A stretch of DNA of 59,853 nt, counting the filler. It is 3 parts of 3 records of this genome, joined end to end, with 100 filler letters (N's around TTAATTAATTAA, not from the genome) between each part and the next. Parts side by side here need not be neighbours in the genome. Positions count along the whole stretch, not along the records: positions 1 to 28,911 come from DRR723986_10974; 2 more parts are not named here. One strand, 5' to 3'. The position numbers were made by a program, and so were the translations under genes. This document shows, in pieces, positions 8,291-29,011 of the stretch. The notes beneath the pieces are model-generated. The model was not told the DNA's origin and ran no database searches. It saw only the letters and a list, made by a program, of their open reading frames with translations. Position 1 is the stretch's first letter, and every line of letters begins with the position of its first letter.

Positions 8291-8357
8291 ACTTTTGTGA
8301 AGTTTTTAATGAATTATTCGGTTTGTTAAAAATTCAAGGCCTATATAGGCTAAGTTT

Positions 8358-8391: not shown

Positions 8392-8425
8392 AAAGGATAC
8401 CTCGAAAGCTGTTTCATTTTATTTT

Positions 8426-9677: not shown

Positions 9678-10253
9678 TTATTTTTTCAATTGTTTCCTTA
9701 GAATAATCATTGCTTTCGACAGGGTATTATAAACTGCTTTAGTATCAAGTTCGACCACCTCGCTTATTTCAGCAATACTTAAGTCATTATAATACTTGAG
9801 ATAAACCACCTCCTTTTGCCGGGAACTTAATTTCTTAAAACAAAAATTGAGACTGGCAATCTGATCTCTTTGGTTATCATCAAAAACCAGATTAGACTCT
9901 AAAGAAGCATCGAATTCCACCACAGTTCCTGAAAATATGCTTCCAAAAATTGATTCTCTTTTCGCGGCTTTTTTCATCATTTTCACCAACTCTCTGCGGA
10001 AACAAGCAATCAGGTAATATCTGACATTATTAGTAGATTTTAGTTGCTCCTTTTTTTGCCAAATTCTTGAAAAAACTTCCTGGACACAATCGTCAATCAT
10101 CTGTTGATCTTTTGTAAGACTATGACCATAGCTAATCAGGTAATCCACATGGTGATTAAAAATAAAATTAAAAGCATCTAAATCCCCACCTTTCATGAAT
10201 TCCCAAACTTGGGCATCATCAATAGTAGAATATGAAAGATTTGATAAATGCAT
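9678..10253 (-). CDS. ECF-family RNA polymerase sigma-70 factor
   Basis: DDCVQEVFSRIW region 2; LSSRQKEVVYLKYYNDLSIAEISEVV region 4; adjacent to fecR. Confidence 0.92.
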   Translation of the reverse strand: MHLSNLSYSTIDDAQVWEFMKGGDLDAFNFIFNHHVDYLISYGHSLTKDQQMIDDCVQEVFSRIWQKKEQLKSTNNVRYYLIACFRRELVKMMKKAAKRESIFGSIFSGTVVEFDASLESNLVFDDNQRDQIASLNFCFKKLSSRQKEVVYLKYYNDLSIAEISEVVELDTKAVYNTLSKAMIILRKQLKK

Positions 10254-10646
10254 TAAAGAAGAATTTGAAAACCCATACCATTACACTCAGAAGTTTCTAT
10301 CTCGATATTGAAATAGATAAAAAGAAAATGTAATCAATAAATTAATTTGTGAAATTTTAGTTGAAAGGCATTAAGATATATGAAGTTTTTAGAAAAGTCA
10401 ACATATGATTTTTACTCACTAGCTGTATCATGGATAAAGTGAAAAAATGCCACACTATTTTAATTGATTAACCGTAATTTCTAAGGAAAACTAATGGCAC
10501 CAAATTTAAAGTGGAGAATCACTTTAGCTTTTTTTTAACCTTGATAGCTTGAGGCCTGCACTACCTGCAAGGAAAGGGTACAAACGAGCAACAGCATTGG
10601 CGCATCTAAAATCAAAAAAATCAATTTCCCTAGTAGAATCTACCGT

Positions 10647-11390
10647 TCAGGATTTCAAAAATGATTCACAGGCTTTGACAAAGGCATCTTTCCTACGAAC
10701 AGAAATTTCCAATTTCAATCCATTGGATAAGGTTACATACCCTGATTTTGAATAACCTTTGATGAAATTCAAATTAATAAGATGGGAATTATGGATTCTG
10801 AAAAACCCAAAATCTAACAACAGCCCCTCAAAGTACTTCAGTGTTTTAGAAACAGTATATTTTTTCCCATCCTTGGAAAACACGTGGGTATAATTAATAG
10901 CAGCCTCACATCTTAAAATGTCCTGAATTGACAGAAATTCAAAGCCATCTTTGGTAGGTAAACTGATTTTCTTTGAATTGGGTAGCTGGGAAATATGTCC
11001 CATTAGCACATCTACCCTTTCTTTAAGCTGCTTTTGATGCATTTTATCTGTGGCCTTTTGAAATGCCACTAGAAAATCCTGCCTATCGATAGGCTTCAAT
11101 AAGTAATCAACAGCCGAAAACCGAAAAGCATCTAAAGCATATTGTTCATATGAAGTGGTAAAAACCAGACAAAAATCAACGTATTCACTTCCTGAAAGCA
11201 CCTCAAAGCCGGTTCTATTTCCTAGCATCACATCCAAGAATACCAAATCCGGCCTGTGAATTTCCAGTCCTTCAATTGCAGAATCAACAGAATCAAAGCA
11301 AACTATAACGGATGATTTCTGATATGGCTTCAAAAAAGCAAGGATGCGATCTGTGCAATGTTGCTCGTCATCAATTATTGCTATTGTCAT
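10647..11390 (-). CDS. LytTR-family response regulator
   Basis: REC domain (IIDDE, DLVFLDV, DYLLKP) plus LytTR domain (FFRIHNSHLINL, ISVRRK); ATG at 11390. Confidence 0.92.
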   Translation of the reverse strand: MTIAIIDDEQHCTDRILAFLKPYQKSSVIVCFDSVDSAIEGLEIHRPDLVFLDVMLGNRTGFEVLSGSEYVDFCLVFTTSYEQYALDAFRFSAVDYLLKPIDRQDFLVAFQKATDKMHQKQLKERVDVLMGHISQLPNSKKISLPTKDGFEFLSIQDILRCEAAINYTHVFSKDGKKYTVSKTLKYFEGLLLDFGFFRIHNSHLINLNFIKGYSKSGYVTLSNGLKLEISVRRKDAFVKACESFLKS

Positions 11391-11398
11391 TTCCCAAG

Positions 11399-13168
11399 TC
11401 AAAAGGCAAGATGTAAAGGTAAAATGATTTCCACACGTGTTCCTGAAGCCGAAGTATTATCGATTATGCGGAGCTCACCCTGAAATCCATATTTTTCTCG
11501 AAGGATTTTGATACGGCTTTCAGTGATTGATACTCCCATGGATTTTTTCTCAGTATCACTATTTTTATTATTTCTTCCTACTCCATTATCTTGTACGGAG
11601 CAGAGCAATTTATCTTTTTCCTTCTTAAAATTAATTTCAATCAGACCTTTTTCCTGCATTCCTAGAAAAGCATGCCAGATACAATTTTCTATAAATGGCT
11701 GTAGAATCATCGGTGGAACCAAAATATTGCCTGGCTCCAAGTCTTCTGAAATGTTGATTTGGTAAGTAAATTTACCTGCTTGTCTTTTACTCTCCACCTG
11801 CAGGTATAATTCCAAAAATCTAATATCATCACTCAGCTGAATTTCATTCAAAGCAGAATTTTCCAAAACCATTCTCATAAGTTTCCCAAACTTGGAAAGG
11901 TAGTCCTGTGCTGCATCAGCGTCATTTTTTAAAATATAATCCCCAATGGAATTCAAGGAATTAAATATAAAATGAGGGTTCATCTGAGACCTGAGGGCCT
12001 TTAGTTCAGTTTCCGAAACCAACGCCTTGAAATCGGCTTCCTTCTTTGCTGTCAAGGCATCTCTGCGTCGCATGTAAAAATAGCTGGCGATCAACAAACC
12101 TGTCAGGATTAATATACCTGTCCAGAGGGTGTATTTCCTGACCAATTTTTGCTTTTCGATTTCGGCAGCAGCTTGAGTTCTTTCTTTTTCAAAATCAAAA
12201 GCCATTTGCTTCCTATTGATCTCCACACGGCGGTTCTGATTATTCAAACTATCCTTCAAAGTAGAAAAGCTACGGTATGCATCCAATGCCTCTTTGAAGT
12301 TTCCCTCGGCGGCATAAATATCTGACAAGGTGCCCCATGCAGATTTTTGAATAAAAAGATTCCCTTGTATCAAGCTGTATTCCAGAGATTCCTGAGCTAG
12401 TGCAGCCGCGTTTTCCAAATCCCCTGTTCCAAGATAGGCCATCGCTGCATTGGCATAGGCAGTGGGTTTTACAAAATCAATTTCAAGCGAATCAACCAGT
12501 TTTAGACTTTTTTCTGCTGTCGTAATCGACTGCTCAGGTTGACCAGCCTGGAAATAGGTCAAAGAAAGGTTGCTGTACAAATTGGCTTGCTGAGTAGGAT
12601 TGGTGTTTATCTGCGCATGCTCCAGCCCCTTGCTGAAATAGAAAATAGCTGAATCATACATTTTTAGAGATCCATAAATATTTCCAATATTCAGGATCGC
12701 CGTCAATTCGGCAGCTGCACTGTTATCAGAAACCTCCCTAAACAAGTCAAGTGCCTTTTTATACTCTTCCTGTTCGTAATAAATGGTAGCTATATTCCCT
12801 TTTATCCCCCACTGGTATTCATTTAGATGAGCATGTGACTCTGCCAGGTTAAGAGCCTGAAGGTAATAGTCCAAGGCCTTAAATGGGTTGGAAAACGTGT
12901 ATTGATAGATCAATCCAAGTCGTTCATCAGCCATCAAAACACCTTTCTGATATCCTAAAATTTCAGCAGCCGACAAAGTTTGCAAAGCCATATCCAACAA
13001 ATTGCTATCAGCAGTAATTGAAAAAAGGTTTTTCTTCAGATAATCATTTCTCTGATCAATCAGAATAGAGTCCTTTTGGGAAAGTTGGTGGATATCCAGA
13101 GCCAGAGTATCCTGGTCAACCAGCAGGAAAAAATCAAGGAAAAATACCAGTACAAGATAGAAGCCCAT
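11399..13168 (-). CDS. TPR-repeat sensor histidine kinase (LytS/His_kinase type)
   Basis: TPR repeats, TM helix, LKALRSQMNPHFIFNSLNSI, PPMILQPFIENCIWH, DNGVG. Confidence 0.92.
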   Translation of the reverse strand: MGFYLVLVFFLDFFLLVDQDTLALDIHQLSQKDSILIDQRNDYLKKNLFSITADSNLLDMALQTLSAAEILGYQKGVLMADERLGLIYQYTFSNPFKALDYYLQALNLAESHAHLNEYQWGIKGNIATIYYEQEEYKKALDLFREVSDNSAAAELTAILNIGNIYGSLKMYDSAIFYFSKGLEHAQINTNPTQQANLYSNLSLTYFQAGQPEQSITTAEKSLKLVDSLEIDFVKPTAYANAAMAYLGTGDLENAAALAQESLEYSLIQGNLFIQKSAWGTLSDIYAAEGNFKEALDAYRSFSTLKDSLNNQNRRVEINRKQMAFDFEKERTQAAAEIEKQKLVRKYTLWTGILILTGLLIASYFYMRRRDALTAKKEADFKALVSETELKALRSQMNPHFIFNSLNSIGDYILKNDADAAQDYLSKFGKLMRMVLENSALNEIQLSDDIRFLELYLQVESKRQAGKFTYQINISEDLEPGNILVPPMILQPFIENCIWHAFLGMQEKGLIEINFKKEKDKLLCSVQDNGVGRNNKNSDTEKKSMGVSITESRIKILREKYGFQGELRIIDNTSASGTRVEIILPLHLAF

Positions 13169-14451: not shown

Positions 14452-17400
14452 TTAGGTATTGACAGGCAAATCAATAACTAGCAAACATCCATGATTGGGT
14501 TGATTCTCAATAGTAAATGAGCCTTTAAGCATCTGAACTTTTGCTTCAATCCCAACTAAGCCCATTCCCCAGTCTTTTCGTTCTTTTTGAATACCAATTC
14601 CATCATCCTCGACTGTAATATTCAAAGTGTCCTCATGATTTATTAATTGAACTCGAAGATGTTTTGCAGAAGCATGTTTCAGCACATTTTGTATAAGCTC
14701 CTGACAGATCCTATACACTGTTAACTCAATTTGATCTTCTAACCTTCTTTCAAACCCAAGAACCTGAAGTTCTGCAATAATTGGCGTCGATTCATTTATA
14801 TCCTCTATCAGTGACTGCAAAGCAGAAGGCAGGCCAAATCTCCTCAAAGATACCGGTGACATATGATGCGCAATTTTCCTCACCTCTCCTATGGCAGCAT
14901 CCAGTTTATCCAAGGTTTCTTTTCCCTCCTGTAGCAGATGATTTTCATCGTACTTATCAAACATATTTGCCAAGCGAATTTTTATAGTGGAAAGTTGCGA
15001 TCCCAAGCTGTCGTGCAACTCGCCGGCAATCCTCTCTCGCTCATATTCCTGTACTTTCAGCAAGTCTTTAATGTGAACATTTTTCTGCTTCTCAATTAAA
15101 GTCATTAGATCCTGTTTTTGCTCTACTTCCAATTTAATCTCCTGGTTAAGCAATAAGCTCCTTTCATAGATCCTGGCATTTTCTAGAATTATTCCGCCTT
15201 GACTTGCTAGAATACGAACCCAGCGTATAATTTCATTGGAGTAATTAGCACTACAAAAACTACTTTCCAAGTAAATGATCATAGAGAGGCTATCTGAAAT
15301 CCCTACCGGGAAAATCATGCAGGATTTAATTCCAGTCTCATTGAGTAATCGAAGTTGCGGGAACCCATTATCAATTTCCAAATCATCGAAAATTAGGGGA
15401 GACTTTGTGCGGTACGACATCAGAAAAATTCCAGACAAATCAATTGCTCCAAAAATTTCCCGATTTCTTAAAGGTTTATTGAGGAGCTGCATTTCTCCCT
15501 TTTGGCCAAATTGCCCTTTCTCCTCTATTAATTGTATAGCCGCACCACTGGACGCAGAAATCCTAAGTAGGATTGTCAACAGTTTCTTTGAGATAAGCTC
15601 TGCATCCATTTCACCACCAAGTTCCCTTAGAATATTTTCTATATCCAAAGGATTGTTTTCCCTGATACTTGAATCAAATAAAAATGAGTATTGCCTCACC
15701 AGCTGCCTAACTTTTCTTTTTGCCTCCCACAATTCATAATTGTTAACTGATTCCAGGAAATAAAGCTTTGCTGAGTCGTAGTCTTTCTTTGCCAGGTAAT
15801 ATTTTCCGGTCAACTCATTGGATAAGGCAGCTTGATAAAGATTACTTCCGGCAAACTGACATGCTTGTTTATAATCCTGTTCTACCTGTAATTCATTTGC
15901 TCCCGATATTCTCCCAATTTCTGCTTTAAGTAACCAATAGTCAGAAGCATAGTTAGCTGCTGCATGATTATACCATGCGTTTAAGTCCCTAAAAACGCCT
16001 TTCAGCCAGGCTAGATTTTCCCGCTTCTCCTCCTCTTGCAGGTTACCCCAGTTCTGAGTTATAGAAAAACTCAGAATCAGAATATTTGCCGGCACTAAGG
16101 GGGAGGCTTCTTGTAATTTCTTGTTTTGATTTGCTTCCTCAGCGCAAGCTTTTGCCTGGTCGTAGTATCCAAAAAGGAAAAAATACCTTGCCAGTACGTA
16201 GTTTCTGTAGAATCGCTCCTCCTGCAAAGTCAGCTTTGCCGCCAGGCCACCTGGATGCTGTTTAGGAAGGGATAGAAAAGGGCTTTCAGTAGTCAAATAC
16301 CGAATCAACTCCTTTTGGTAATGCGTGATATAGTAGGTCAACTCCATACCAGGATATGATTCCCTGAAATCGAAAGATAAAAGTCCTGATATTGGTTTTC
16401 CACTTATAAAATGAAGATTAAAAAGGTGTGTTTTGAGGATGTATAAGCCAATAAGATCACCGGACTTTCTTCCAACTTCCATTCCTTCCTGCAAAAGAAT
16501 CGTGCTCTCATCAAAAGCTCTTTTCCATGGTTGAATATAAAATGCAAAAACCCCCAGCACTCTACATCTGTATTGAAGATCTTCTAGGGCTGTATTAATA
16601 TCAAGCCCCATTTTCCCAAATTCATATCCCCCGGTAAGATCCCCTGCAATAATCCGCATTCTTCCATAACTCACATATCCAATTGTACTTACATTGGGAA
16701 GCTTAAAGTATCGCGAACGCAAAATAAGCTGCAAGGCAGCCCAAGTCATCAAAGCTTCCGAAGTATGGTGCATCGCCATGCCTCCTATGTACAGCAACCT
16801 AAGAATAGACGATTGCCTTTCATCTTCTTCTTGTTCAAAAAGGGCATCAATTTTTGAACTTTGCAGAGAGACATGCTTTTGAAAAACCTGGATTTGCTTA
16901 GTAAGTTCCTGATCATTTGAAGGTATGTCAATACCGAGTTCCCCTAATATTTCCTGAAGAATAACAACAGCTTTTCGATATCGGCCCAAGTGGTTATTTA
17001 TGACAATCTTTAACTCAAAGGCTTCAGCTCTATGCTTTTGGATACTTAGATGCTCAATCAAAAAATCCAATTTGATTTCAGCTAAATCATATTCCCCAAG
17101 CAAGTATTCAATTTTAGCACTTTCTATATGTGCCTGAAAAAGAATTTCATTTACTTCATCCCATCGTAATCCTTTCAAAAGTTCAAGCGAAGCTTTTAAA
17201 AATATCTTTGCTTGGGAATATGCGTTTTCATCCTTCTGAAGCTTTGCTACTTCCAACAAGATAGTTGCCGCATGCACTTTCTCTCCGGTCTGGGAAATAC
17301 TGTCGGTTCCAAATTGTAAATGTTGGGCTATAATGACCTTATCAGAGTTGCTTAAAAGGCTAAAATTATCCCTGAGTAAAACTTTTGCCAGTTGAAAGTG

Positions 17401-18585
17401 ATAGAATGATTTTTGTTTATTCGTGAGTCCGGAATAAATAAATTCCCGAAAATAACTTTCAGAAAACAAATATTTTCCATGATTAACCACTAATATCCCA
17501 TCGGAAATAAGATGTGCTAAAACGCTTTTAGCATCAGGAATATCAGCACAAAGGTGTTCAAGGTCATTTTCGGAAAGTTGTTCTGCACAGGCATTCAATC
17601 CTACAATTTTTTTAGCTGAATCAGAAAGGGAATTTAATCGCTCCTGATAAAATTGGGTAGAGTTAACACCCTGAAATCGAGCCTTTATCTCTGTGACATT
17701 GCCTCTCCAGCCCTCTTTGTCTTTCACCAGGAGTTTTTCCTGAACAAGCGCATCAACCAAGGTGGTCAATAGTGCTGGGTTCCCTTTCCCCAATTGATGA
17801 ATCAACTGGCTCGCAGTTAATTCACATTTCCCTCCCAACAGTTGCTCTATAAAAAGCCGGCTTTGATCTAGGGTAAATTCTCCCAATTCTATCCTTTGAA
17901 TATGCTTTTGGTCAAAGCCGAGTGAACCAATTAATTGATCAACTTGCCCTAAATCTTCTTCAGAATCACGAACTGCGCCTAACCAAAGCAACTTGGATGG
18001 GGGAATGTGTGTGAGTAGGTATTGCAGTAAGTTTGCACTGGAACCATCAATCCACTGCAAATCATCTGTAAAAAGAATCAGTACCCGATCTGAAAAATCA
18101 CTGAAATATTCAAAAAATACTTTAAAAAGGTAATACAGCTGATTTTCCATTTTTGGTGTATTGGAAATCTCTTGCTTGCCCCCTTTAGGTACGAGCATCG
18201 TCAGTTCAGGAATATATTCACACATCAAAGCGAAATTTTCCCCCAATGCAAGACTTAAACCTTCCGAAAACGAAACGAACGTGTCAGGGTCCATCTCTCT
18301 GAACTTGGTTCTTAAGTAATTTCCAATTGCCAATTTCAAACCTGCGTAGGGAACATGTTGAAGTTGGGGCGATTGACTGCTGATCAACACATCAAAGCTT
18401 GAGTTTTGTAGGTATTTTTCTATTAAAAAAGTCTTGCCGGCACCTGTTTTACCGATAATTACTGCCCCATTCCATAAGGTATTCGAAGGGTGAAGCATCC
18501 TCTTCAAATATCCATCCAACTGGTCGAGTAAAAGATTATGAATGGATAGGTCTTCTGGAACACTAGGTGGGAATGAGCTTTGCAT
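14452..18585 (-). CDS. STAND/AAA_16 ATPase - helical repeat - GAF - HisKA_3 histidine kinase, with no N-terminal Ser/Thr kinase domain
   Basis: Walker A IIGKTGAGKT near residue 45; Walker B LILFTDDLQWID; GNP motif; GAF (IKSCMIFPV..IIYLES); ERERIAGELHDSLG; EDDGIG and GMGL boxes. Confidence 0.88.
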   Translation of the reverse strand: MQSSFPPSVPEDLSIHNLLLDQLDGYLKRMLHPSNTLWNGAVIIGKTGAGKTFLIEKYLQNSSFDVLISSQSPQLQHVPYAGLKLAIGNYLRTKFREMDPDTFVSFSEGLSLALGENFALMCEYIPELTMLVPKGGKQEISNTPKMENQLYYLFKVFFEYFSDFSDRVLILFTDDLQWIDGSSANLLQYLLTHIPPSKLLWLGAVRDSEEDLGQVDQLIGSLGFDQKHIQRIELGEFTLDQSRLFIEQLLGGKCELTASQLIHQLGKGNPALLTTLVDALVQEKLLVKDKEGWRGNVTEIKARFQGVNSTQFYQERLNSLSDSAKKIVGLNACAEQLSENDLEHLCADIPDAKSVLAHLISDGILVVNHGKYLFSESYFREFIYSGLTNKQKSFYHFQLAKVLLRDNFSLLSNSDKVIIAQHLQFGTDSISQTGEKVHAATILLEVAKLQKDENAYSQAKIFLKASLELLKGLRWDEVNEILFQAHIESAKIEYLLGEYDLAEIKLDFLIEHLSIQKHRAEAFELKIVINNHLGRYRKAVVILQEILGELGIDIPSNDQELTKQIQVFQKHVSLQSSKIDALFEQEEDERQSSILRLLYIGGMAMHHTSEALMTWAALQLILRSRYFKLPNVSTIGYVSYGRMRIIAGDLTGGYEFGKMGLDINTALEDLQYRCRVLGVFAFYIQPWKRAFDESTILLQEGMEVGRKSGDLIGLYILKTHLFNLHFISGKPISGLLSFDFRESYPGMELTYYITHYQKELIRYLTTESPFLSLPKQHPGGLAAKLTLQEERFYRNYVLARYFFLFGYYDQAKACAEEANQNKKLQEASPLVPANILILSFSITQNWGNLQEEEKRENLAWLKGVFRDLNAWYNHAAANYASDYWLLKAEIGRISGANELQVEQDYKQACQFAGSNLYQAALSNELTGKYYLAKKDYDSAKLYFLESVNNYELWEAKRKVRQLVRQYSFLFDSSIRENNPLDIENILRELGGEMDAELISKKLLTILLRISASSGAAIQLIEEKGQFGQKGEMQLLNKPLRNREIFGAIDLSGIFLMSYRTKSPLIFDDLEIDNGFPQLRLLNETGIKSCMIFPVGISDSLSMIIYLESSFCSANYSNEIIRWVRILASQGGIILENARIYERSLLLNQEIKLEVEQKQDLMTLIEKQKNVHIKDLLKVQEYERERIAGELHDSLGSQLSTIKIRLANMFDKYDENHLLQEGKETLDKLDAAIGEVRKIAHHMSPVSLRRFGLPSALQSLIEDINESTPIIAELQVLGFERRLEDQIELTVYRICQELIQNVLKHASAKHLRVQLINHEDTLNITVEDDGIGIQKERKDWGMGLVGIEAKVQMLKGSFTIENQPNHGCLLVIDLPVNT

Positions 18586-18706
18586 CTAAACTAAATGAAA
18601 ATTAAGAAATACACTTAGTGCTAAACTAAGAAGCAAAACAAGGAGTTGGTATATTTTTAGGGGGAATTATAATACCGGGAAGCTAGAATTCTAACAGATC
18701 AAGCTG

Positions 18707-19519
18707 TCAACCTAAGGAATATGCGGTGATGGCATCATTCACAGAGCCATGAATCTCCAATAGTTCGGCAGCCTTTTCATAAGATAAAGATGGTATTTCT
18801 GAAATAAGCATCCGTACTCCTCTATCAACAAGTTTGGTATTGCTGAGCTGCATATGAACCATCTTATTGCCTTTCACTTTCCCTAAACGAATCATAAGAC
18901 TAGTACTGATCATGTTCAGGATCATTTTCTGTGCAGTACCTGACTTCATTCTTGTGCTTCCAGTGACAAACTCAGCTCCAACCTCCACTTCTATGGGGTG
19001 GATTGCATAGGCAGAAATAGGTGCATGGGAATTGCATGAAATACTTGCTGTCATAATCCCCTGCTTTCTTGCTTCTTTAAGTCCACCAAGTACGTATGGG
19101 GTTTTGCCTGATGCGGCAATTCCTATAACTGTATCATTCTGGTTTAACTTATACTTGGAAAGGTCTATCCAAGCTTGATTTACATCATCTTCCGCTCCTT
19201 CGACAGCAGACCTTATGGCTTTATCGCCTCCTGCTATCAACCCAACGATCAAATCCGGGGAAGCTCCAAAGGTTGGGGGTATTTCAGATGCATCCAGCAC
19301 GCCTAATCTTCCGGATGTGCCTGCGCCTATGTAAAACAGTCTCCCTCCAGCATTGAAATTTACAACCAACTTTTCTACAAGCTTTTCAAGCTGAGGAATT
19401 ACCTGCTGGACAGCGAGTGCTACTTTTTGATCTTCTTGATTGATAGATTCCAACAACTCCCCTAAAGGCATGGATTCTAAATTATCGTAGGAAGAAGGAG
19501 ATTCGGTAGCAAGATTCAT
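18707..19519 (-). CDS. murQ: N-acetylmuramic acid 6-phosphate etherase
   Basis: GAGTSGRLGVLDASEIPPTFG, AVEGAED, GIAASGKTPYV, EFVTGSTRMKSGTAQK, GNKMV. Confidence 0.95.
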   Translation of the reverse strand: MNLATESPSSYDNLESMPLGELLESINQEDQKVALAVQQVIPQLEKLVEKLVVNFNAGGRLFYIGAGTSGRLGVLDASEIPPTFGASPDLIVGLIAGGDKAIRSAVEGAEDDVNQAWIDLSKYKLNQNDTVIGIAASGKTPYVLGGLKEARKQGIMTASISCNSHAPISAYAIHPIEVEVGAEFVTGSTRMKSGTAQKMILNMISTSLMIRLGKVKGNKMVHMQLSNTKLVDRGVRMLISEIPSLSYEKAAELLEIHGSVNDAITAYSLG

Positions 19520-19546
19520 TGATATCAGGGAGTGGAAGGGATTTCT

Positions 19547-20404
19547 TTAATAATTAGCGAAGGTATGGCAATGATAATTTACGAGACCATCCATTGGGCG
19601 CTGCTCTATTTTTTGGATGGATTCTCCAAACTCATCAGCAACAGCCTTCAGGTGGAAAGCAAAATGGTAGGCTATAGAACCTGTAAATACAAGGGGAACA
19701 GATTTGTGGGATTTTCTATACGGCATAATATAATATTCAAAAAACTGCCGGAAATTCTGGTAAATAATTGAATGTATGACTGGGTTAGAAGCGTTTTTGA
19801 GTAGAAATGGAGTAAATGAGGCCAAAAATCGATTGGCTTGGGGCTGGTTGTAAATCTTATCCAGAATCATGCGTTGATTCAGGTCATACTCCCTAAAGAA
19901 TTCTTCTCGAAGGTCATCCCCCAGATTACCCTGAAGCAGTTCACGAATGAGATCTCTACATAATACTGTGCCGCTACCGTAGTCTCCCAGAATGAAACCC
20001 AAAGAAGGGACACTACCTATAATATCTTTTCCATCGTACAAACAGGAATTTGCTCCTGTCCCCAAAATGCAAGCAATGCCTGTTTCTCCCTGGAGTAAAC
20101 TTCTTGCCGCTCCCAATATATCACCGTTTACCTCGGCAGGTACTTGGGCTGGAAACAATTCATCCAGAACTCCTGCCAATTCAGCTGCTTTAGAAGGATG
20201 TCCACAGCCTGCCCCATAAAAAATAACTTTACCCACATCTGAAACCTTATCCAGCACCTTATTTCTAAGTTCTTTTTTGATTTCATCTGCGGCCAGAAAA
20301 TAGGGATTAAGTCCTTTTGATTTGAGGGATACTAAGCATTCACCTGATTTATCTATTAGTCTCCAATCAGTCTTAGTAGACCCACTATCTGCCAATAAAA
20401 GCAT
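19547..20404 (-). CDS. BadF/BcrAD-type N-acetyl-amino-sugar kinase (MurK/NagK-like)
   Basis: ADSGSTKTDW, GLNPYF, FYGAGC, ILGTGANSC, LGFILGDYGSG; directly upstream of murQ. Confidence 0.85.
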   Translation of the reverse strand: MLLLADSGSTKTDWRLIDKSGECLVSLKSKGLNPYFLAADEIKKELRNKVLDKVSDVGKVIFYGAGCGHPSKAAELAGVLDELFPAQVPAEVNGDILGAARSLLQGETGIACILGTGANSCLYDGKDIIGSVPSLGFILGDYGSGTVLCRDLIRELLQGNLGDDLREEFFREYDLNQRMILDKIYNQPQANRFLASFTPFLLKNASNPVIHSIIYQNFRQFFEYYIMPYRKSHKSVPLVFTGSIAYHFAFHLKAVADEFGESIQKIEQRPMDGLVNYHCHTFANY

Positions 20405-20487
20405 TCAGTAGTAATTTAATAGGAAAGAGCCTAGGCATAACCGAAGCTACATGATGTACAAATATGTTTTGAATAAGAAGAATTGCC

Positions 20488-20523
20488 ATCCCTGAAAATA
20501 GGGATTTGTCATAATCACCAGTG
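20488..20523 (-). promoter_or_regulatory. Putative NarL/LuxR operator upstream of kinase-murQ-HK operon
   Basis: Minus strand reads cactggtgatt-N7-atccctattttcagggat; near-identical to 21525-21560. Confidence 0.7.
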
Positions 20524-20584
20524 ATTATAATTGGCTAAGTTACCTTGCCTAAAGGTGGTAGAAGAAAAATGAAAAAGTATCCTA

Positions 20585-21220
20585 TTAACTAATCAGACCT
20601 TTTTTGTAGGCATTATTTACTAACTCAGCAGTATTTTTTGCCTTTAACTTATAGAGTAAGTTTTTCCGGTGAGTTTCTACCGTATTCTTACTGATAAAAA
20701 GTTTCTCGCCTATTTCAAGCGTAGTAAGTCCAATAGCAATGCATTCCAACACTTCGGTCTCCCTTCCGGATAGCCGTTCATTTACCTCGTATTTGGAAGA
20801 ATCCTTCAAAAAACTGGTCAATAGGATTTTACTCACTTCCTCACTGACATAGCTCTCACCGCTATGAATTGAGTGAATGGCATCAACTAGATCTTTTTTA
20901 CCGGTATTTTTAAGTATGTAACCACTAGCACCGCTTTTTAGCATATCCGAAATAAAGTGTCGGTCCCTATGCATGGAAAGACCAAGAATTTTAAGTTTCT
21001 TATTTGTTCTACTTAGCTCTTTTGTTGCTTCCACCCCATCCATTTCAGGCATGTTCACATCCATTATCACCAGATCAACCTGATTTTCCTTGCAATGCCG
21101 AATAGCTTCTTTTCCATTACAGGCTTCACCCACTACTTTTATCCCAGGCAGGTCTTTCAACAAGGCCCTTAAACCATCGATGAACATTTGATGGTCATCG
21201 GCTATCAGCACATTAATCAT
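20585..21220 (-). CDS. NarL/LuxR-family response regulator
   Basis: LIADDHQM, DLVIMDVNMP, GYILKN, LSGRETEVL..IGEKLFISKNTVETHRKNL. Confidence 0.93.
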   Translation of the reverse strand: MINVLIADDHQMFIDGLRALLKDLPGIKVVGEACNGKEAIRHCKENQVDLVIMDVNMPEMDGVEATKELSRTNKKLKILGLSMHRDRHFISDMLKSGASGYILKNTGKKDLVDAIHSIHSGESYVSEEVSKILLTSFLKDSSKYEVNERLSGRETEVLECIAIGLTTLEIGEKLFISKNTVETHRKNLLYKLKAKNTAELVNNAYKKGLIS

Positions 21221-21524
21221 AGTGTAAAAATTTAATAGTAAACTCTCTCCTCTACTTCAAGAGACTAATAGTAGTAGGTATTTATTGAATCCGACAACAA
21301 ATTTCCACCAACGGAATTCTCAATTATTCAAGACCCATCTTATCCTTTAAGTGGACTGGAATGCCTAACACTGCGATTTCTTTACTTACAAATTTTGAAT
21401 AAACAGGCCAAAAGCACTTTCACAGTGTCTATTGACCTATTTACGTTTAGTGATGATGAATTCTGTAATGCCTTAGAATGGTATATCATACACTCCATAA
21501 GTTAACTAATCTACCCTTATTTAG

Positions 21525-21560
21525 CACTAGTGATTTATTAATATCCCTGTTTTCAGGGAT
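21525..21560 (+). promoter_or_regulatory. Putative NarL/LuxR operator upstream of the second susC
   Basis: cactagtgatt-N7-atccctgttttcagggat; contains the perfect 7-4-7 inverted repeat ATCCCTG-tttt-CAGGGAT. Confidence 0.7.
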
Positions 21561-21709
21561 TGAATAGGCTCATTTTTTAGAAAGATTTGAACGTGAAATA
21601 ATCGTGGGTTTACAAAAATTGAATTCAAGGAAAAACTTCCACTTGTTTTTACTGCTGTAGTATAACTCCACTTTTAATTCATTAAACACTATTCAACTCA
21701 ATTAATTAA

Positions 21710-24700
21710 ATGTTTAACATGAAAAAACTTTTACATTGTTCGTTTGTGACGATGTGTTTTCTCCTGTTTCATTTTCAGGTTAATGCCCAGTCCTTAAATG
21801 TGACTGGAACCATAAGCAGTGCTGAAGATGGGATATCATTACCGGGAGCAAGCATTTTGGTCAAGGGAACCACTAAAGGTGTCACCTCGGACATCGATGG
21901 AAAATACCAGATAACTGTAGAAAAAGGTCAGGTACTGGTATTCAGTTTTATAGGTTTGGTCAGCCAAGAAAGGATGATCGATGTAGGCGGAACTCTTGAT
22001 ATAGTTTTAGAGCCTGATGCTCAGGCGCTTTATGAATTCGTAGTAGTCGGTTATGGTACACAAAAACGCAGTGACCTGACTGGAGCTGTATCATCAGTAG
22101 ACACCAAGGTACTGGAGTCACGACCAATTACAGATGTGGCACGTGGACTGCAAGGTTCCACTCCTGGCCTTACTATCACCACTCCAAGTGGTCAGATCGG
22201 ACAAAATCCAACGATAAGACTACGAGGAACGGTAGGTACATTAAGTAATTCAGGGGGAGCCCAGCCGCTTATTTTGGTGGATAACGTGGAAATTCCAAAC
22301 CTCCAGTTAGTTAACCCTGAAGATATTGAATCGATCTCTGTATTAAAGGATGCGGCTTCTTCCTCCATTTATGGGTCTAGAGGTGCTTGGGGTGTGATTC
22401 TGATCACTACCAAAAAAGGTAAAAAAGGAGAAGCTCCAAAAATCAGTTATTCAAACAACTTCGCTTGGGCAACTCCTACCGTTACTCCTACCATTGCCAA
22501 TGCAGCAGATGGAGCGGAAATGGCTTTTAAAGCACTACAGCGAACTAACCCTTCCACCAACGTATTTGGTGTTGTAGGTATGTATTTCGACGAAATCGGT
22601 ATACAAAAAATGCGTGACTGGGAAGCTCAGTATGGTGGCCAAAACCTCGGAAATGAAATGGTCATAGGAAGAGATTTTGAAGTTAGAGACGGTAGATTAT
22701 TCTTTTACCGCCCATGGGATGCTGGTGACATGTTTATGAAAAACTGGACACCTCAACAGAAACATGACCTATCCGTAGCTGGTGGCTCTGAAAAAACAAC
22801 ATACAGACTTGGTGTAGGTTACCTTGGTCAGAACGGTGTGCTCAAAGTAAACCCTGATGAATTCAACCGTTATACTGCTGATTTAAGCGTAAGTAGTCAG
22901 GTAACTGATTGGATGGAAGTAAGAGGAGGTGTTCTCTACAGTAATACAAAGTTCACCAGACCTTTCTACTTCTCAAGTGAGACATATGATCCATGGTATT
23001 ATCTTCTCAGATGGCCTAAAAACTACCCTTATGGTACCTATGAAGGACAGCCATTCCGAAGTGCTATCACTGAGGTGCAGCAGGCAAAAATGAATGAGCA
23101 AAACACCTCTCTTACCCGCCTTAACTTAGGAACTACCATAACTCCATTGAAAGGTTTGTCTATCGTAGCGAATTACACCTTTGATTCTCAAAACTTCCAT
23201 GACCACCAAACTGGTGGAGTCGTATCAGCCTATAATTTTTGGTCTACAGGAGCAAACCTTCAAAACGCACCTTATACCAGTGCATCTTATAACCGTGTTC
23301 AATATGCTTCTTCCTGGAGTAATAGAAACGTAGGAAAAGCATTTGCTACGTATGAGAAAATGTTTGGCGACCATTCATTGAAAGCTATGGTTGGTGGAGA
23401 TATAGAAGCCTATGAATACTGGTACCACAGCTCCCAAAGAAGAGATTTGATGGATCTGGACAGAGGGGAACTTGACCTTGCTTCCGGTGACCAGTTTGTC
23501 GATGGATCAAGAAACCAGTGGTCAACTGCAGGTGCTTTTAGCCGACTAAACTATAACTATAAAGGTAAATACTTCCTGGAATTGAACGGCAGATATGATG
23601 GATCTTCAAGATTGTCGCCTACAGAAAGATGGGCATTTTTCCCATCCATGTCCGCAGGATATGTAATCTCTGAAGAATCATTTTTCGAGCCCGTATCCAG
23701 TGTCATTTCCTTCTTGAAACTTCGTGGATCATGGGGAGCAATAGGAAATCAAAATGCTTACCTACGAGATATATACAGAATAATGGGTTCCACCTCTTCT
23801 GGCTGGTTGCTGGGTGCGAACAATCAATTAACATTCGGTACTCCTGGAGCACTTCCTTCTTCCCTTACTTGGGAGACGGTAACTACCTTGGATTTAGGAT
23901 TTGATGCCAGGTTCTTCAAAGATAAATTCGGGGTTTCCTTCGATTGGTATAACAGAACCACTAGTGACATGCATAGTGCTGGTGAAGTCCTACCAGCCTC
24001 TTATGGAACCTCTGCGACTAAGCAGAATTTTGGCGAACTGGAGACAAAAGGCTGGGAACTGGCACTGGATTACACGCATGGATTTACCAATGGATTAAAT
24101 TTAAATGCAACGGTAGTTCTTTCTGATTACAAGGAAACTATAACAGAATTTGCAGATAACACAAGTATCTATTCTAACCGTCCGGGTAGAGTAATCGGAG
24201 ATATCTGGGGTTATGAGACAGACCGATTATTCACAGAGGATGATTTCGTGAAAGATGGCAATGGAGAATTAGTGTTGGACAATGGAAAATATGTACTCAA
24301 AGAAGGTATTCCTTCCCAATCCTTGTACGAAAGCGGCTGGTTCTATTATGGCCCAGGTGATGTAAAATATAAAGACCTGAATGGAGATGGTGAACTCACT
24401 TTTGGTCAAAATACGGAAGAGGATCATGGGGATCTTAAAGTAATCGGTAATTCCACCCCTAGATACCAATACGGTGTACGTCTAGGAATGGACTTCAAAG
24501 GAATAGATCTGAGCTTTTTCATTCAAGGCGTAGGTAAAAGAGACTATTGGGCAAACGGTCCAATTATGATCCCTGGTTACAGACCGGGAGAAGCTTGGTT
24601 CTCACATCAATTGGACTATTGGAGCGAAGATAATCCAGATGCATTTTACCCACGTCCAACCAATGCACTTCAATCTAATAATGCTAAAAACTTCCTTCCT

Positions 24701-24970
24701 CAGACCAGATATTTACTTGATTTATCTTACATGAGAATGAAGAATATCACCTTGGGTTACTCCCTTCCTTCTTCGTTGATTTCTAAGATTAGCGTGGATA
24801 AAGTAAGAGTTTATGTATCCGGAGAAAACCTATTTGAGATTGACAAATTAGACCTGCCATTGGATCCTGAAGTGGATTATACTTCTGCAGGAAGTAACGA
24901 CTCGAACACCTTTGGAAGAGTTTACCCATATAGCAGAACCCTGTCATTTGGTCTACAGGTCACCTTTTAA
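21710..24970 (+). CDS. susC: SusC/RagA TonB-dependent transporter
   Basis: EFVVVGYGTQK, VLKDAASSSIYGSRGAWGVILITTKKG, C-terminal YPYSRTLSFGLQVTF. Confidence 0.95.
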   Translation: MFNMKKLLHCSFVTMCFLLFHFQVNAQSLNVTGTISSAEDGISLPGASILVKGTTKGVTSDIDGKYQITVEKGQVLVFSFIGLVSQERMIDVGGTLDIVLEPDAQALYEFVVVGYGTQKRSDLTGAVSSVDTKVLESRPITDVARGLQGSTPGLTITTPSGQIGQNPTIRLRGTVGTLSNSGGAQPLILVDNVEIPNLQLVNPEDIESISVLKDAASSSIYGSRGAWGVILITTKKGKKGEAPKISYSNNFAWATPTVTPTIANAADGAEMAFKALQRTNPSTNVFGVVGMYFDEIGIQKMRDWEAQYGGQNLGNEMVIGRDFEVRDGRLFFYRPWDAGDMFMKNWTPQQKHDLSVAGGSEKTTYRLGVGYLGQNGVLKVNPDEFNRYTADLSVSSQVTDWMEVRGGVLYSNTKFTRPFYFSSETYDPWYYLLRWPKNYPYGTYEGQPFRSAITEVQQAKMNEQNTSLTRLNLGTTITPLKGLSIVANYTFDSQNFHDHQTGGVVSAYNFWSTGANLQNAPYTSASYNRVQYASSWSNRNVGKAFATYEKMFGDHSLKAMVGGDIEAYEYWYHSSQRRDLMDLDRGELDLASGDQFVDGSRNQWSTAGAFSRLNYNYKGKYFLELNGRYDGSSRLSPTERWAFFPSMSAGYVISEESFFEPVSSVISFLKLRGSWGAIGNQNAYLRDIYRIMGSTSSGWLLGANNQLTFGTPGALPSSLTWETVTTLDLGFDARFFKDKFGVSFDWYNRTTSDMHSAGEVLPASYGTSATKQNFGELETKGWELALDYTHGFTNGLNLNATVVLSDYKETITEFADNTSIYSNRPGRVIGDIWGYETDRLFTEDDFVKDGNGELVLDNGKYVLKEGIPSQSLYESGWFYYGPGDVKYKDLNGDGELTFGQNTEEDHGDLKVIGNSTPRYQYGVRLGMDFKGIDLSFFIQGVGKRDYWANGPIMIPGYRPGEAWFSHQLDYWSEDNPDAFYPRPTNALQSNNAKNFLPQTRYLLDLSYMRMKNITLGYSLPSSLISKISVDKVRVYVSGENLFEIDKLDLPLDPEVDYTSAGSNDSNTFGRVYPYSRTLSFGLQVTF

Positions 24971-24982
24971 ATTGATAGCACG

Positions 24983-26689
24983 ATGAAACTTAGAATAATA
25001 GCACTCGCTCTCAGCTTCTTTGCACTTTCCAGTTGTGAAGATTTTCTGGAAAAACCACCATTAGACAGTCTTACGGATGAGACGTATTGGACCAATGAAA
25101 GCAATGTCAGAAGTTTTTCATGGGGATTTTATACTGCCTACTTTAGTGGGTATGGCTCAGGCTATACCTGGGGTAAATTCTTCTCCGGACAAACCTTAAA
25201 TGATGACTTCGCCCCTTCAAGTCCAAGTCAATTCAGAAGAACTGTCCCAACGGCAGCTACAAGTGGATATTGGAACTTCTCTTATGTGAGAAAGGCAAAC
25301 ATTTTTCTTGATAGAGTACAAACAGTTCCAATGGATGAAGAGGCAATTCTACATTGGTCAGGGGTAGCTCGCTTCTTTAGAGCTTTAGAATACTTTGATT
25401 TGGTTAAGCAGTTTGGAGATGTTCCTTGGTATGATGAAGAACTAAGTGAGTCAGATCCAGAAATGCTATACAGACCTAGAGATTCCCGGGAATATGTCAT
25501 GGACAGAGTCTTGGAAGATTTCGAGTTCGCTGCAGAAAATGTGCGCATAGACGATGGTAACGATGGTCAGACCGTAAACAGAGCGGTAGTACTAGCCCTG
25601 ATGTCCAGAGTATTTCTATTTGAAGGCACTTGGCAGAAATACCATAACAGTAACAACGAAAAAGCAAAAGAATACTTGGAAGCCTCTAAAAGTGCAGCTG
25701 CTGAGTTGATCAGCACCGGAGGTTTCTCTTTGGGTAATTACCGGGAAGTATTTAATTCATTGAATTTGACAGGTAATCCTGAGGTGATTCTTTTCAGACA
25801 TTACGAACCTGGAATCTTAACCCATGCATTGAATTCTTATAACAACATGGAGCCTCAGACGGGGGTATCTAAAGATGCCATCGAAGCTTACTTGGCTGAT
25901 GATGGGCTTCCTATTGGTTTGTCCTCAGTTTATCAAGGAGACAAAGGCATAGAGAATGTAATGGCCAATAGGGATCCAAGAATGTATGAAACCCTTGTTT
26001 CTGATGAATTGAGATTGAATGGTATAGCTTCGAATTACAGCACCACCGGCTATGCGACTCACAAATTCCTCAATGAGGTGATTAAAGATGAACCGGAAGG
26101 AAGCTCTAATCTGAACTACACGGATTCTCCTGTTATACGATTTGGTGAAGTATTGATCAACTACGCAGAGGCTGCTGCGGAACTGGCATCAGTTGGCGGA
26201 GCTGCACTAACGCAGGCAGACATTGACATGTCTGTTAATGTGCTCCGTGACAGACCGGGAATAATGTTACCGCATCTTGAAATTATGGGCACTGAGGTAG
26301 CGGTTAATGGAATGGTTTATGACGATCCTGCCAGAGATCCCGAAATCCCTTCTATAATTTGGGAAATCCGTCGTGAAAGAAGAATTGAATTGATGATGGA
26401 AGGATTCCGAACTGATGACCTTGCGCGATGGGCAAAGTATGAGTACACCGATACAGAAGGAAACTCAGACATCAATCGTGGTGCTTGGATCAGAAAAGCA
26501 GATTATCCTGCACTTCAAAGTAGCGTTACACTAACTGAAGGTGAAGAAGGATACATCATCCCTGCGACAGCAGCAGTATCCCAACGTTTGTTTGAAGATC
26601 CCAAAGTGTACCTAGATCCTATTCCATTAGATCAAATTACACTTTACCAGGAAAAAGGCGTGACATTAACACAAAATCCAGGTTGGTAA
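24983..26689 (+). CDS. susD: RagB/SusD family lipoprotein
   Basis: Lipobox LSSCEDFL; RFGEVLINYAEA, RRERRIELMMEGFR, QNPGW. Confidence 0.93.
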   Translation: MKLRIIALALSFFALSSCEDFLEKPPLDSLTDETYWTNESNVRSFSWGFYTAYFSGYGSGYTWGKFFSGQTLNDDFAPSSPSQFRRTVPTAATSGYWNFSYVRKANIFLDRVQTVPMDEEAILHWSGVARFFRALEYFDLVKQFGDVPWYDEELSESDPEMLYRPRDSREYVMDRVLEDFEFAAENVRIDDGNDGQTVNRAVVLALMSRVFLFEGTWQKYHNSNNEKAKEYLEASKSAAAELISTGGFSLGNYREVFNSLNLTGNPEVILFRHYEPGILTHALNSYNNMEPQTGVSKDAIEAYLADDGLPIGLSSVYQGDKGIENVMANRDPRMYETLVSDELRLNGIASNYSTTGYATHKFLNEVIKDEPEGSSNLNYTDSPVIRFGEVLINYAEAAAELASVGGAALTQADIDMSVNVLRDRPGIMLPHLEIMGTEVAVNGMVYDDPARDPEIPSIIWEIRRERRIELMMEGFRTDDLARWAKYEYTDTEGNSDINRGAWIRKADYPALQSSVTLTEGEEGYIIPATAAVSQRLFEDPKVYLDPIPLDQITLYQEKGVTLTQNPGW

Positions 26690-26710
26690 TCAGTTTACAT
26701 TAAATAAAAC

Positions 26711-26749
26711 ATGTCCTTCTTTCAATCAACGAAAGAAGGACATTTTTTT
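26711..26749 (+). terminator. Rho-independent terminator or attenuator after susD
   Basis: 13-bp stem atgtccttctttc/gaaagaaggacat, 7-nt loop, T-run. Confidence 0.8.
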
Positions 26750-26780
26750 AGCTTACAATTCATCATAAAGTACATTTTCC

Positions 26781-28622
26781 ATGAAGAAAATACTCATTCT
26801 CCTTTTCCTATTAAAATTTGATATCGCTCAAGCTCAAGATTTTAAGTTTGCATTCATTTCGGACACGCACATTGGTTCTCCTAACGGAGTTGCGGAAGAG
26901 GATTTGAAAAGAACGGTCTCGGATATCAATTCTTTGGGAAACATGGATTTTGCAATTGTCACCGGTGACATTACCGAAATGGGTACTAATGAGGAAATTT
27001 CTACCGCCAAGAAATTATTGGATGAGCTAGCCATCCCTTACTATGTAATTCCAGGGAATCACGATACAGGATGGTCAGAATCCGGAGGAGTAAGTTTTAT
27101 CACTACTTTTGGTTACGACAAATTCGCCTTTGAGCACAAAGGATTCAAGTTCATAGGAACTGCTTCTGGTCCTTACGTCCGTATGTCGGACGGCCACATA
27201 CCGAGAGATGCAGTCGTTTGGTTGGATTCTGTGCTAAATGCCATTCCAGCTAATCAGCCTATCATTAATGCAAACCATTATCCACTAAACAACAGCTTGG
27301 ACAACTGGTTTGAGATGACAGACCGATTAAAAAAGCACAATACTCAATTCTCCATCTGTGGTCATGGCCATGCAAATAAAGCCTTGAATTTTGAAGGAAT
27401 TCCTGGAGCTATGGGGAGATCAAACCTGCGGGCCAAAGATGAAATCGGGGGATATACTATTGTTGAAATCACCGATGATACTGCCTTTTTCTCTGAAAGA
27501 ACACCTGGAGTAAAAACCCAGGATCCTTGGAGAGAAATAGCGCTAAATACAAGAAACTACGAAGATTCAACTACCGATCCTAGGCCAGATTATAGTATCA
27601 ATGAGCAATATCCTCAGGTAAAATCGAAATGGAGTTATCATTCTTCTGCGAATGTTATTTCAACTCCTTTAGTAAAGGATGGAAAAGTGTTTTTCGGTAA
27701 CAGCCTGGGTAAGTTTGAAGCATTGAATGCAGAAACAGGTAAAGTTAACTGGTCTTTTCAAACCAATGGAGGCATCTTTTCCTCTCCTTCTGCCTTCGAA
27801 GATTTAGTCATATTTGGATCCGGTGATGGGAACATCTATGCCTTGAATTCAGCCAATGGAAATTTAAAATGGAAGGCAACTACAGGTTCTGCAGTTTTGG
27901 GATCCCCTATTATTCAGGAAGATGTAGTTTACATAGGTGGAAGTGATGGTAAATTCAGAGCGCTGGATGCTGCAAGCGGTAGCGTTAAGTGGGAGTTCGA
28001 AGGTATCCAAGGTGCTGTAGTCAGCAAACCTTTGTTATCTGATGGCCTGGTAATTTTTGGTGCTTGGGACAAAAACCTCTATGCTCTGGATCAACAGACC
28101 GGAGATCTCAAATGGAGCTGGAATAATGGTTCACCCAACCGAATGTACTCCCCTGCCATGTGCATACCGGTTGCTGCAAATGGCACCGTATTCATCGTCG
28201 CCCCAGACCGTTACCTAACTTCCTTGGATGTGCATACTGGTGACGAACTATGGCGAAGTAATGAGGCGACAGTCCGTGAATCAATAGGTATTTCTGAAGA
28301 TAAAAAGTGGATATACGGTAAAACAATGAATGATGAAATTGTCGCGTACCCTACGAGCCGGGAAAAATCCCAAGTCGCTTGGAGAATGGATGCTGGCTTT
28401 GGGTATGAGCATGTACCCTCTATGTTGGTGGAAAAAGATGGTAAGGTATATTTTGGCACAAAGAACAGCACAGTATATAGCATCAATCCAACAACCCAAA
28501 CTACCAACTGGGCACATAAAATTGATAACTCAATGGCAAATACCGTAAATGTAGTATCTGAGCATTCCTTGGTAGTAGCTACAATGGATGGAAAAATGGA
28601 GTGGTTGGAGTTTGTCCCTTAA
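26781..28622 (+). CDS. Secreted calcineurin-like metallophosphoesterase fused to a PQQ-like beta-propeller
   Basis: Signal peptide; SDTH, TGD, GNHD, GHGH motifs; repeated ALxAxxGxxxW propeller blades. Confidence 0.88.
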   Translation: MKKILILLFLLKFDIAQAQDFKFAFISDTHIGSPNGVAEEDLKRTVSDINSLGNMDFAIVTGDITEMGTNEEISTAKKLLDELAIPYYVIPGNHDTGWSESGGVSFITTFGYDKFAFEHKGFKFIGTASGPYVRMSDGHIPRDAVVWLDSVLNAIPANQPIINANHYPLNNSLDNWFEMTDRLKKHNTQFSICGHGHANKALNFEGIPGAMGRSNLRAKDEIGGYTIVEITDDTAFFSERTPGVKTQDPWREIALNTRNYEDSTTDPRPDYSINEQYPQVKSKWSYHSSANVISTPLVKDGKVFFGNSLGKFEALNAETGKVNWSFQTNGGIFSSPSAFEDLVIFGSGDGNIYALNSANGNLKWKATTGSAVLGSPIIQEDVVYIGGSDGKFRALDAASGSVKWEFEGIQGAVVSKPLLSDGLVIFGAWDKNLYALDQQTGDLKWSWNNGSPNRMYSPAMCIPVAANGTVFIVAPDRYLTSLDVHTGDELWRSNEATVRESIGISEDKKWIYGKTMNDEIVAYPTSREKSQVAWRMDAGFGYEHVPSMLVEKDGKVYFGTKNSTVYSINPTTQTTNWAHKIDNSMANTVNVVSEHSLVVATMDGKMEWLEFVP

Positions 28623-28911: not shown

Positions 28912-29011
28912 NNNNNNNNNNNNNNNNNNNNNNNNNNNNNNNNNNNNNNNNNNNNTTAATTAATTAANNNNNNNNNNNNNNNNNNNNNNNNNNNNNNNNN
29001 NNNNNNNNNNN
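28912..29011. other. Artificial contig linker (N44-TTAATTAATTAA-N44)
   Basis: N runs flanking a six-frame stop spacer. Confidence 0.98.

Follow-up and report, generated by a model that had tools for sequence, protein, structure and literature searches.

In a window of 59,853 nt, made of three joined contigs, we identified on the first contig (DRR723986_10974, positions 1-28911) a conserved regulatory module, in which a cytoplasmic STAND-TPR histidine kinase of 1377 aa is dedicated to a bacterial cell-wall-scavenging locus and is accompanied by a candidate operator and a candidate ligand pocket (Table 1). The reading that we hold to be probable is that this soluble STAND-TPR-GAF kinase and a NarL-type response regulator act together, the kinase binding a wall-derived amino sugar in its TPR region and the regulator activating susCD and murK(Q) via a palindrome. 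The link between the pair and this regulon is the part that we regard as very likely. An earlier, sequence-only reading of the window had placed the genes of the locus; all the open reading frames (ORFs) that it named were recovered at their positions, with a gap of 121 bp between murQ and the kinase gene. N spacers lie at 28912-29011 and 46406-46505, and the GC content changes from ~0.37 to ~0.54 past the second spacer. The window therefore mixes unrelated pieces, and because the contig changes at the first spacer, nothing past 28911 is part of the kinase locus.

Linkage of the kinase to peptidoglycan-salvage genes

We compared the 20 kb around 38 orthologues in f1, the family of the window, and 7 in the distant family f18, both of Cytophagales, 3 unrelated STAND proteins without a kinase and 24 Ser/Thr-kinase-bearing controls, with neighbour genes labelled by BLAST against references from these loci. 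Results showed that murK was present at 33 of the 38 f1 loci, which come from related and thus not independent genomes, and that four of the five misses were cut by contig ends. The NarL regulator was found at 27 f1 loci (29 with extensions), GHL10 at 22, murQ at 15, a GH3-beta-lactamase at 13, an SSF carrier at 9 and two amidases at 8 and 7, and at least one salvage gene stood at 35. In f18 the regulator was found at 6/7 loci and murK at 4/7. Neither murK nor murQ occurred beside any of the 24 controls, two of which had any salvage gene, and the unrelated kinase-less STAND proteins gave 0/3. Beside the orthologues, susC belonged to the same subfamily (≥60% identity) at 24/38 loci and to a second subfamily at 10. 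Further neighbours recognized by Pfam in relatives were Amidase_2, GH3 with beta-lactamase, GHL10, NamZ (3 loci), SSF, MFS, GNAT, deacetylase with GH9, and an NAGPA-phosphoesterase. Gene order differs between Algoriphagus, other f1 clades and f18, and the linkage holds down to 24% identity and through several rearrangements. Within the genus, the 11 genomes (of 123) that carry the kinase are also those in which the regulator and the locus murK paralogue were found.

The kinase stands at peptidoglycan-salvage loci far more often than chance would give, which bears out the association first suggested for this window. Synteny with murQ had been expected as well; it held for the MurK-type kinase, and murQ itself was found at 15/38 loci only. 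From the locus counts, the constant unit is the kinase, the regulator, a special MurK and SusCD, with murQ optional. Among the controls, one Ser/Thr-kinase-bearing protein (L113:585-3605) has GHL10 and an AmpG-like gene ~3 kb off, by chance or as a relic. Genes for an M50 peptidase, an isolated Cas6-like protein and an asparagine synthase lie beside two f18 paralogues (L059 and L061). Two nagB genes further adjoin L059, and L061 has a weak copy of the box described below 5' of a D-Ala-D-Ala ligase gene and a PASTA gene.

The proposed pair of a sugar kinase and MurQ was borne out. MurQ scored above three NCBIfam cut-offs (367 vs 168, 321 vs 255 and 310 vs 302), and the sugar kinase matched Tannerella MurK (E 2e-60), its paralogue and two uncharacterised solved proteins, all at E 4e-67 to 6e-58. 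The locus MurK is 34-35% identical to the housekeeping MurK, and a separate housekeeping murK-murQ pair was found in the nearest genome, G001 (L068), and in 4/5 tested genomes without a locus murQ. Position 142 is Y, W, F or Q in 24/24 aligned linked MurKs and Glu in the housekeeping copy and three solved relatives. The locus MurK retains the catalytic D95, the sugar contacts N119 and D141, and the ATP motifs. N-acetylmuramic acid (MurNAc) kinase activity is predicted for it, and its substrate may differ given position 142. The retention of a distinct MurK alongside a housekeeping MurK-MurQ pair suggests that this paralogue may produce the signal, as NAGK does for NOD2.

The same regulon could instead respond to a generic amino-sugar phosphate, N-acetylglucosamine-6-phosphate (GlcNAc-6-P) or glucosamine-6-phosphate (GlcN-6-P), and so report any hexosamine source including chitin fragments. 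The absence of murQ at 23/38 loci, the two nagB genes beside L059, and GH9, polysaccharide deacetylase and GNAT or NagX-like acetyltransferase genes at some loci point this way, and human NAGK, of the same fold as MurK, accepts both GlcNAc and MurNAc (PMC9477735). We consider it unlikely, however: the amidases, NamZ, AmpG-like carriers and MurQ are directed at muramic acid rather than at chitin. The small residues at MurK 133-135 (P-S-L here, S-P-L in Tannerella MurK), a pocket that admits the lactyl group in the Tannerella enzyme, are also kept, although MurNAc binding is, according to the Tannerella MurK paper, not identifiable from sequence alone.

The sensor kinase and its family

The sequence-only reading had described a soluble STAND-TPR-GAF-HisKA_3/HATPase protein, and our results agree. 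Pfam placed AAA_16, the only NTPase class it reported, at residues 20-201, GAF_2 at 998-1135, HisKA_3 at 1182-1246 and HATPase_c at 1287-1375. The protein divides into a nucleotide-binding domain (NBD; ~1-235), a helical domain with winged helix (~236-390), an arm with TPR solenoid (~391-975) and the GAF domain (~980-1140), followed by a coiled coil, HisKA_3 and HATPase. Walker A lies at G45-T52, Walker B at D174-D175 and the phospho-acceptor His at H1191. Across 79 sequences, G50 and K51 of the P-loop were 100% conserved, D174 98% and D175 93%, while H1191, N1300, D1327, G1329, G1331, G1340 and G1342 were each 100% conserved, leaving the H, N, G1 and G2 boxes intact. The highest 19-residue hydropathy was 1.63, and because it lies within the modelled GAF domain, no membrane segment is indicated.

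No protein-kinase domain was detected by Pfam in the 1377-aa protein, in line with the proposed absence of the usual Ser/Thr kinase and a Walker A near residue 45. A frameshifted or split Ser/Thr kinase upstream was ruled out by stops in all three frames of the 121-bp gap. Among near-full-length homologues, Walker A lay within the first 80 residues in 85/89 (the other four gave no motif match). Together with the upstream stops, this means that the missing domain is not an assembly artefact. In distant homologues, Walker A lay past residue 180 in 126/131.

In the predicted model, an NBD-helical domain-winged helix core is followed by an arm and a repeat sensor. Its best structural matches were MalT and PH0952, with a MalT-MalY complex entry at the top and an alignment identity of 9-16%. 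The sensor region is an all-helical TPR-like solenoid, NLRs appear among the weaker fold matches, and no leucine-rich repeat (LRR) was found by Pfam or in the model. The description as NLR-like is therefore apt in the wide STAND sense and not in the strict one, this being a MalT-type TPR sensor without LRRs. A single-sequence structure model reached a predicted local distance difference test score of 39 and was not used. Searching solved structures by sequence with the kinase profile returned P-loop fragments only, and ESM Atlas returned only unnamed and generic TPR clusters.

Conservation along the kinase peaks in the TPR solenoid, not in the GAF domain or on the NBD surface, and this region is likely the ligand site, judged from the alignment. 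An alternative is that the signal comes by protein contact, with MurK as a trigger enzyme that holds the kinase off as MalY does MalT, or through a GAF ligand. GAF domains commonly bind small molecules, the MalT-MalY entry is the top structural match, and the locus MurK is kept despite a housekeeping MurK and has lost the Glu at position 142. The site of the conservation maximum speaks against this alternative, as do D95, N119, D141 and the ATP motifs of MurK, which are kept as for an active enzyme. As a weak sign, MurK distances follow the kinase less closely than those of the receiver domain (rho 0.84-0.88 vs 0.90-0.94); the kinase-regulator correlation is itself high as for all gene pairs and indicates no specificity. 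A complex prediction of MurK with kinase residues 12-690, run without alignments, scored 0.01 and is evidence neither way. We rate this alternative as quite improbable.

One orthologue (L050:4366-7311), of 981 aa, has no NTPase part; its TPR, GAF and kinase regions remain, and its locus retains murK, the regulator and the boxes. P0090 is equally long. Another (L084:456-4589) is broken by one TAG stop in a genome that is 63% complete, which may be a sequencing error.

The orthologues are, by their sequences, a small subfamily of Cytophagales. A search with residues 1-1000 returned 100 proteins at 37-99% identity, followed by five Ser/Thr-kinase-bearing ones at 20-23%, and the named close matches were all Cytophagales. 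The subfamily was present in 28/401 genomes of f1 (matches >860 bits) and 4/31 of f18, and it was not found in the sampled genomes of 20 other families of Cytophagales; its range beyond this order rests on the named matches and one profile search. That search gave 18 clusters above a score drop that is partly built in, since the profile was made from subfamily members; down to E 1e-30 it gave 12,145 clusters. In an unrooted maximum-likelihood tree of 32 chosen rows, 11 murK-linked kinases fell on one side of a branch (92/92) and 15 Ser/Thr-kinase-bearing kinases on a separate branch (100/100). Because the tree is unrooted, loss and gain of the Ser/Thr kinase are indistinguishable. A second STAND-GAF-HisKA_3 family without Ser/Thr kinase (L064, L065 and L066) has its own branch, each member lying between an alpha/beta hydrolase and a NarL regulator.

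A palindromic box 5' of susC and murK

The palindrome ATCCCTG-N4-CAGGGAT occurs twice in intergenic DNA of the locus. A weight matrix, trained on these same loci, found 90 sites in 41/58 subfamily stretches vs 2 in 28 control stretches. Where genes had enough upstream DNA, the box stood 5' of 34/34 susC and 32/34 murK, in 11 and 13 of 14 genera, respectively, and it was found 5' of 0/5 housekeeping murK loci. TTTG begins exactly 26 bases past the box in 61/66 sites against a background of 0.8% per position, a spacing that is independent of the matrix training. The sigma-A box of Bacteroidota is TAnnTTTG at -12 to -5 (PMC9723704). Its first T is nearly always absent at these sites, and the palindrome would span ~-51 to -34 relative to the predicted start, where a class II activator sits next to the polymerase. 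These results indicate, on sequence grounds, that the box is conserved and activator-like 5' of susC and murK, the spacing to TTTG being the geometry of an activator site. A sigma-70 promoter scan, which is not suited to Bacteroidota, stayed below chance.

Box sites were also found 5' of amidase genes; one such site, ~16 kb away from the core, has no TTTG. Exact genome-wide matches fell inside the locus in 3/3 cases in G079, 2/2 in G074, 2/6 in G001, 1/2 in G170 and 0/1 in G629; the other four in G001 form one tandem repeat. In this repeat (L146:8293-8394, G001 C1), four palindromes with a 28-bp period are located between a GFO oxidoreductase gene and a divergent operon that includes DUF3307, and many genomes of the genus have tandem palindromes in two to four copies. 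Five further loci (L141-L145, in G215, G220, G256, G261 and G216) carry a LuxR-solo gene of 250 aa, with GerE only by Pfam, and three or four copies of ATCCCTGAATTCAGGGAT 5' of alpha/beta hydrolases, an esterase, DUF418 and a WD40-like protein, which makes up a small regulon of its own with a nearly identical box. The helix-turn-helix of this LuxR-solo protein is 61% identical over 56 residues to that of the NarL regulator. A degenerate box was dropped as a co-occurrence test, since 59/123 genomes matched, mostly through the tandem repeat and the LuxR-solo locus.

These observations bear on the possibility that the kinase-regulator pair rides along as a cassette and senses envelope damage, phage or nutrient state, or that another LuxR-type protein reads the box. 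It would fit the patchy distribution (11/123 genomes), the similar box at the LuxR-solo locus and a recognition helix, TVETHRKNL, that is common to unrelated NarL proteins, and many bacterial STANDs sense phage proteins (PMC13581612). The survival of the linkage to 24% identity and through rearrangements argues against it, as does the position of every exact box match of G079 and G074 within the locus. In addition, the kinase had no match in PADLOC, and its output domain is a histidine kinase rather than a toxic effector. We therefore hold this possibility to be very improbable.

The remaining features of the locus are listed in Table 1. The locus is 99% identical over 16.9 kb in G001 and is present at 99% protein identity in the Algoriphagus winogradskyi record (L039). 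The genes of the proposed susC-susD-phosphoesterase operon were found as described, with the refinement that a terminator-like hairpin lies between susD and the phosphoesterase gene; terminator-like matches overall are at chance level (16 vs 15). The phosphoesterase is the only enzyme gene accompanying this susC-susD pair, and searches with SusD and the phosphoesterase gave no substrate clue. Elsewhere on the contig, 1966-13168 holds a separate ECF-FecR-susC-susD locus and a TPR-histidine kinase/LytTR pair. These were rejected as locus parts because they are not kept beside most orthologues, and in L039 the ECF locus is not beside the kinase. At the contig end, 28777-28911 is a short repeat, of which G001 has dozens of copies at 70-89% identity.

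Table 1 Features of the kinase locus (window positions)
Feature	Position	Strand	Basis or remark
STAND-TPR-GAF-HisKA_3/HATPase sensor kinase, 1377 aa	14452..18585	-	ORF, Pfam, model
murQ, MurNAc-6-phosphate etherase	18707..19519	-	NCBIfam; variable member, 15/38 orthologous loci
MurK-family (BadF/ASKHA) amino-sugar kinase, locus-specific paralogue	19547..20404	-	
Candidate -7 promoter box of murK, CATATTTG, one mismatch to TAnnTTTG	20459..20466	-	21 bp past palindrome
Palindromic candidate operator	20488..20505	.	83 bp 5' of murK start
NarL/LuxR-type response regulator: receiver (D8, D9, D54, K104) and GerE helix-turn-helix	20585..21220	-	
Palindromic candidate operator	21543..21560	.	149 bp 5' of susC start
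Candidate -7 promoter box of susC, AAGATTTG, one mismatch to TAnnTTTG	21582..21589	+	21 bp past palindrome
susC TonB-dependent transporter	21710..24970	+	TIGR04056 850 vs cut-off 368
susD lipoprotein	24983..26689	+	SusD_RagB
Hairpin of 13-14 bp between susD and phosphoesterase gene	26711..26743	.	Terminator-like on both strands
Exported metallophosphoesterase fused to PQQ-like beta-propeller	26781..28622	+	Accessory: 8/38 loci, first 20 kb

Proposed mechanism and comparison with known systems

In the mechanism that we propose, SusC and SusD would import wall fragments, which GH3-beta-lactamase, GHL10, amidases or NamZ, encoded alongside in most relatives, would trim. MurNAc or small muropeptides would then enter through an inner-membrane carrier, of which some relatives encode an SSF or AmpG-like candidate, and phosphorylation at C6 is predicted for the locus MurK. 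The best candidate for the ligand is MurNAc-6-phosphate or a 6-phospho-muropeptide. It would bind the conserved polar face of the TPR solenoid, in the way that maltotriose binds MalT, and free the kinase from an autoinhibition relayed via GAF and coiled coil. H1191 would autophosphorylate and pass the phosphate to D54 of the regulator. Once phosphorylated, the regulator would occupy the box at ~-51 to -34 and bring sigma-A polymerase to these weak promoters. With murK, murQ and probably the kinase gene on one strand behind one box, positive feedback would follow. The signal would be cleared by MurQ, from the locus or the housekeeping pair, through conversion of MurNAc-6-P to GlcNAc-6-P. We lean slightly towards a wall-derived amino sugar as the ligand in the TPR region; a phospho-ligand made specifically by MurK is a tentative suggestion.

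Several points weigh against this reading. The locus at 14452-28622 has no peptidoglycan hydrolase of its own, the AmpG, AmpD and NagX labels of neighbours are best matches below NCBIfam cut-offs, and the genomes behind the locus counts are related. Three f18 paralogues (L058, L059 and L061) have no murK alongside, and two murK-linked f18 loci (L060 and L111) have no box 5' of murK. With two mismatches allowed, the pattern occurs in the window at chance level (3 vs 2.34), so that the case for the box rests on its conservation, scored by a matrix that these loci trained. The near-identical box (AATT spacer) around the unrelated LuxR-solo locus in other Algoriphagus genomes supports a LuxR-type reader, yet it means that the box is not unique to the NarL regulator. 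The conserved TPR residues were placed by helix order, not by model coordinates. In the NTPase part, the GxP motif is GNP in the 1377-aa kinase, its proline (P270) is 64% conserved and the adjoining winged-helix motif is eroded, the winged-helix His (H396) being conserved. Given these motifs and the L050 orthologue without the NTPase part, the ATPase switch may be dispensable.

MalT of Escherichia coli and PH0952 share the order NBD-helical domain-winged helix-arm-TPR with the kinase, and MalT is a sugar-responsive STAND that controls a sugar uptake regulon (PMC6468293). MalT itself binds DNA, whereas here the output is a GAF domain, a histidine kinase and a separate regulator. Dual Ser/Thr-His kinases of the HstK/cbSTKIII type have the same STAND-TPR-GAF core by sequence, with a C-terminal histidine kinase after the GAF domain; their layout is described as Ser/Thr kinase, GAF, His kinase (PMC2176072). 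The present kinases differ in having no Ser/Thr kinase domain, a separate branch, their own conserved TPR residues and a tie to wall salvage. Fungal Chk1, and Rhodococcus BpdS/BphS with their NarL-type partners, are similar in domain layout. Rhodococcus BphST and BpdST induce catabolic genes (PMC10282184).

In Tannerella forsythia, the ampG-murTKQ operon for muropeptides and MurNAc is under two-component control by GppX (PMC5388701), and it likewise combines Bacteroidota wall-scavenging genes with a homologous MurK. GppX is a hybrid kinase-receiver-AraC protein encoded elsewhere; in the present free-living Cytophagales, the SusCD locus itself contains the STAND kinase and the NarL regulator. 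The locus resembles polysaccharide utilization loci (PULs) in its susC-susD pair and local regulator; degradative enzymes accompany the pair in relatives (GHL10 at 22 and GH3 at 13 of 38 loci). Unusual PUL control had been proposed for it. Because of GppX, two-component control of wall salvage is not new in Bacteroidota; what stands is that the regulator types named in the available part of PMC13543919 (SusR, hybrid two-component and ECF) include no cytoplasmic STAND kinase with a NarL partner. In the main text of PMC13581612, a survey of prokaryotic STANDs, histidine kinases go unmentioned. Our literature search found no paper on this system, although the STAND clade tables in the supplements of that survey may list the clade.

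Mammalian NAGK phosphorylates the muramyl C6 and so yields a 6-phospho-muramyl agonist of NOD2; direct binding was still open in that 2022 paper (PMC9477735). Here, an amino-sugar kinase of the same ASKHA fold is the most constant neighbour of the STAND sensor, and we draw the parallel as an analogy. NOD2 differs in its NACHT-LRR architecture and immune output, where we find a TPR sensor and a predicted metabolic output. That this logic evolved independently in free-living Bacteroidota, with the MurK paralogue phosphorylating scavenged muramic acid or muropeptides at C6 and the STAND TPR region reading the signal, is doubtful at present. If true, it would be a bacterial STAND receptor for peptidoglycan, here triggering feeding on the walls of other bacteria, and a tractable model of phospho-muramyl recognition.

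The family of STAND-GAF-histidine kinases is very large, with >12,000 clusters in the profile search, and our literature search found no ligand described for any of them. The present subfamily brings a candidate ligand class and a candidate pocket along with a partner regulator and promoter box, and STAND gating of a histidine kinase thus becomes directly testable. For aquatic and soil Cytophagales, the module is a candidate route to sense and consume bacterial wall debris, and it would represent PUL control that senses in the cytoplasm.

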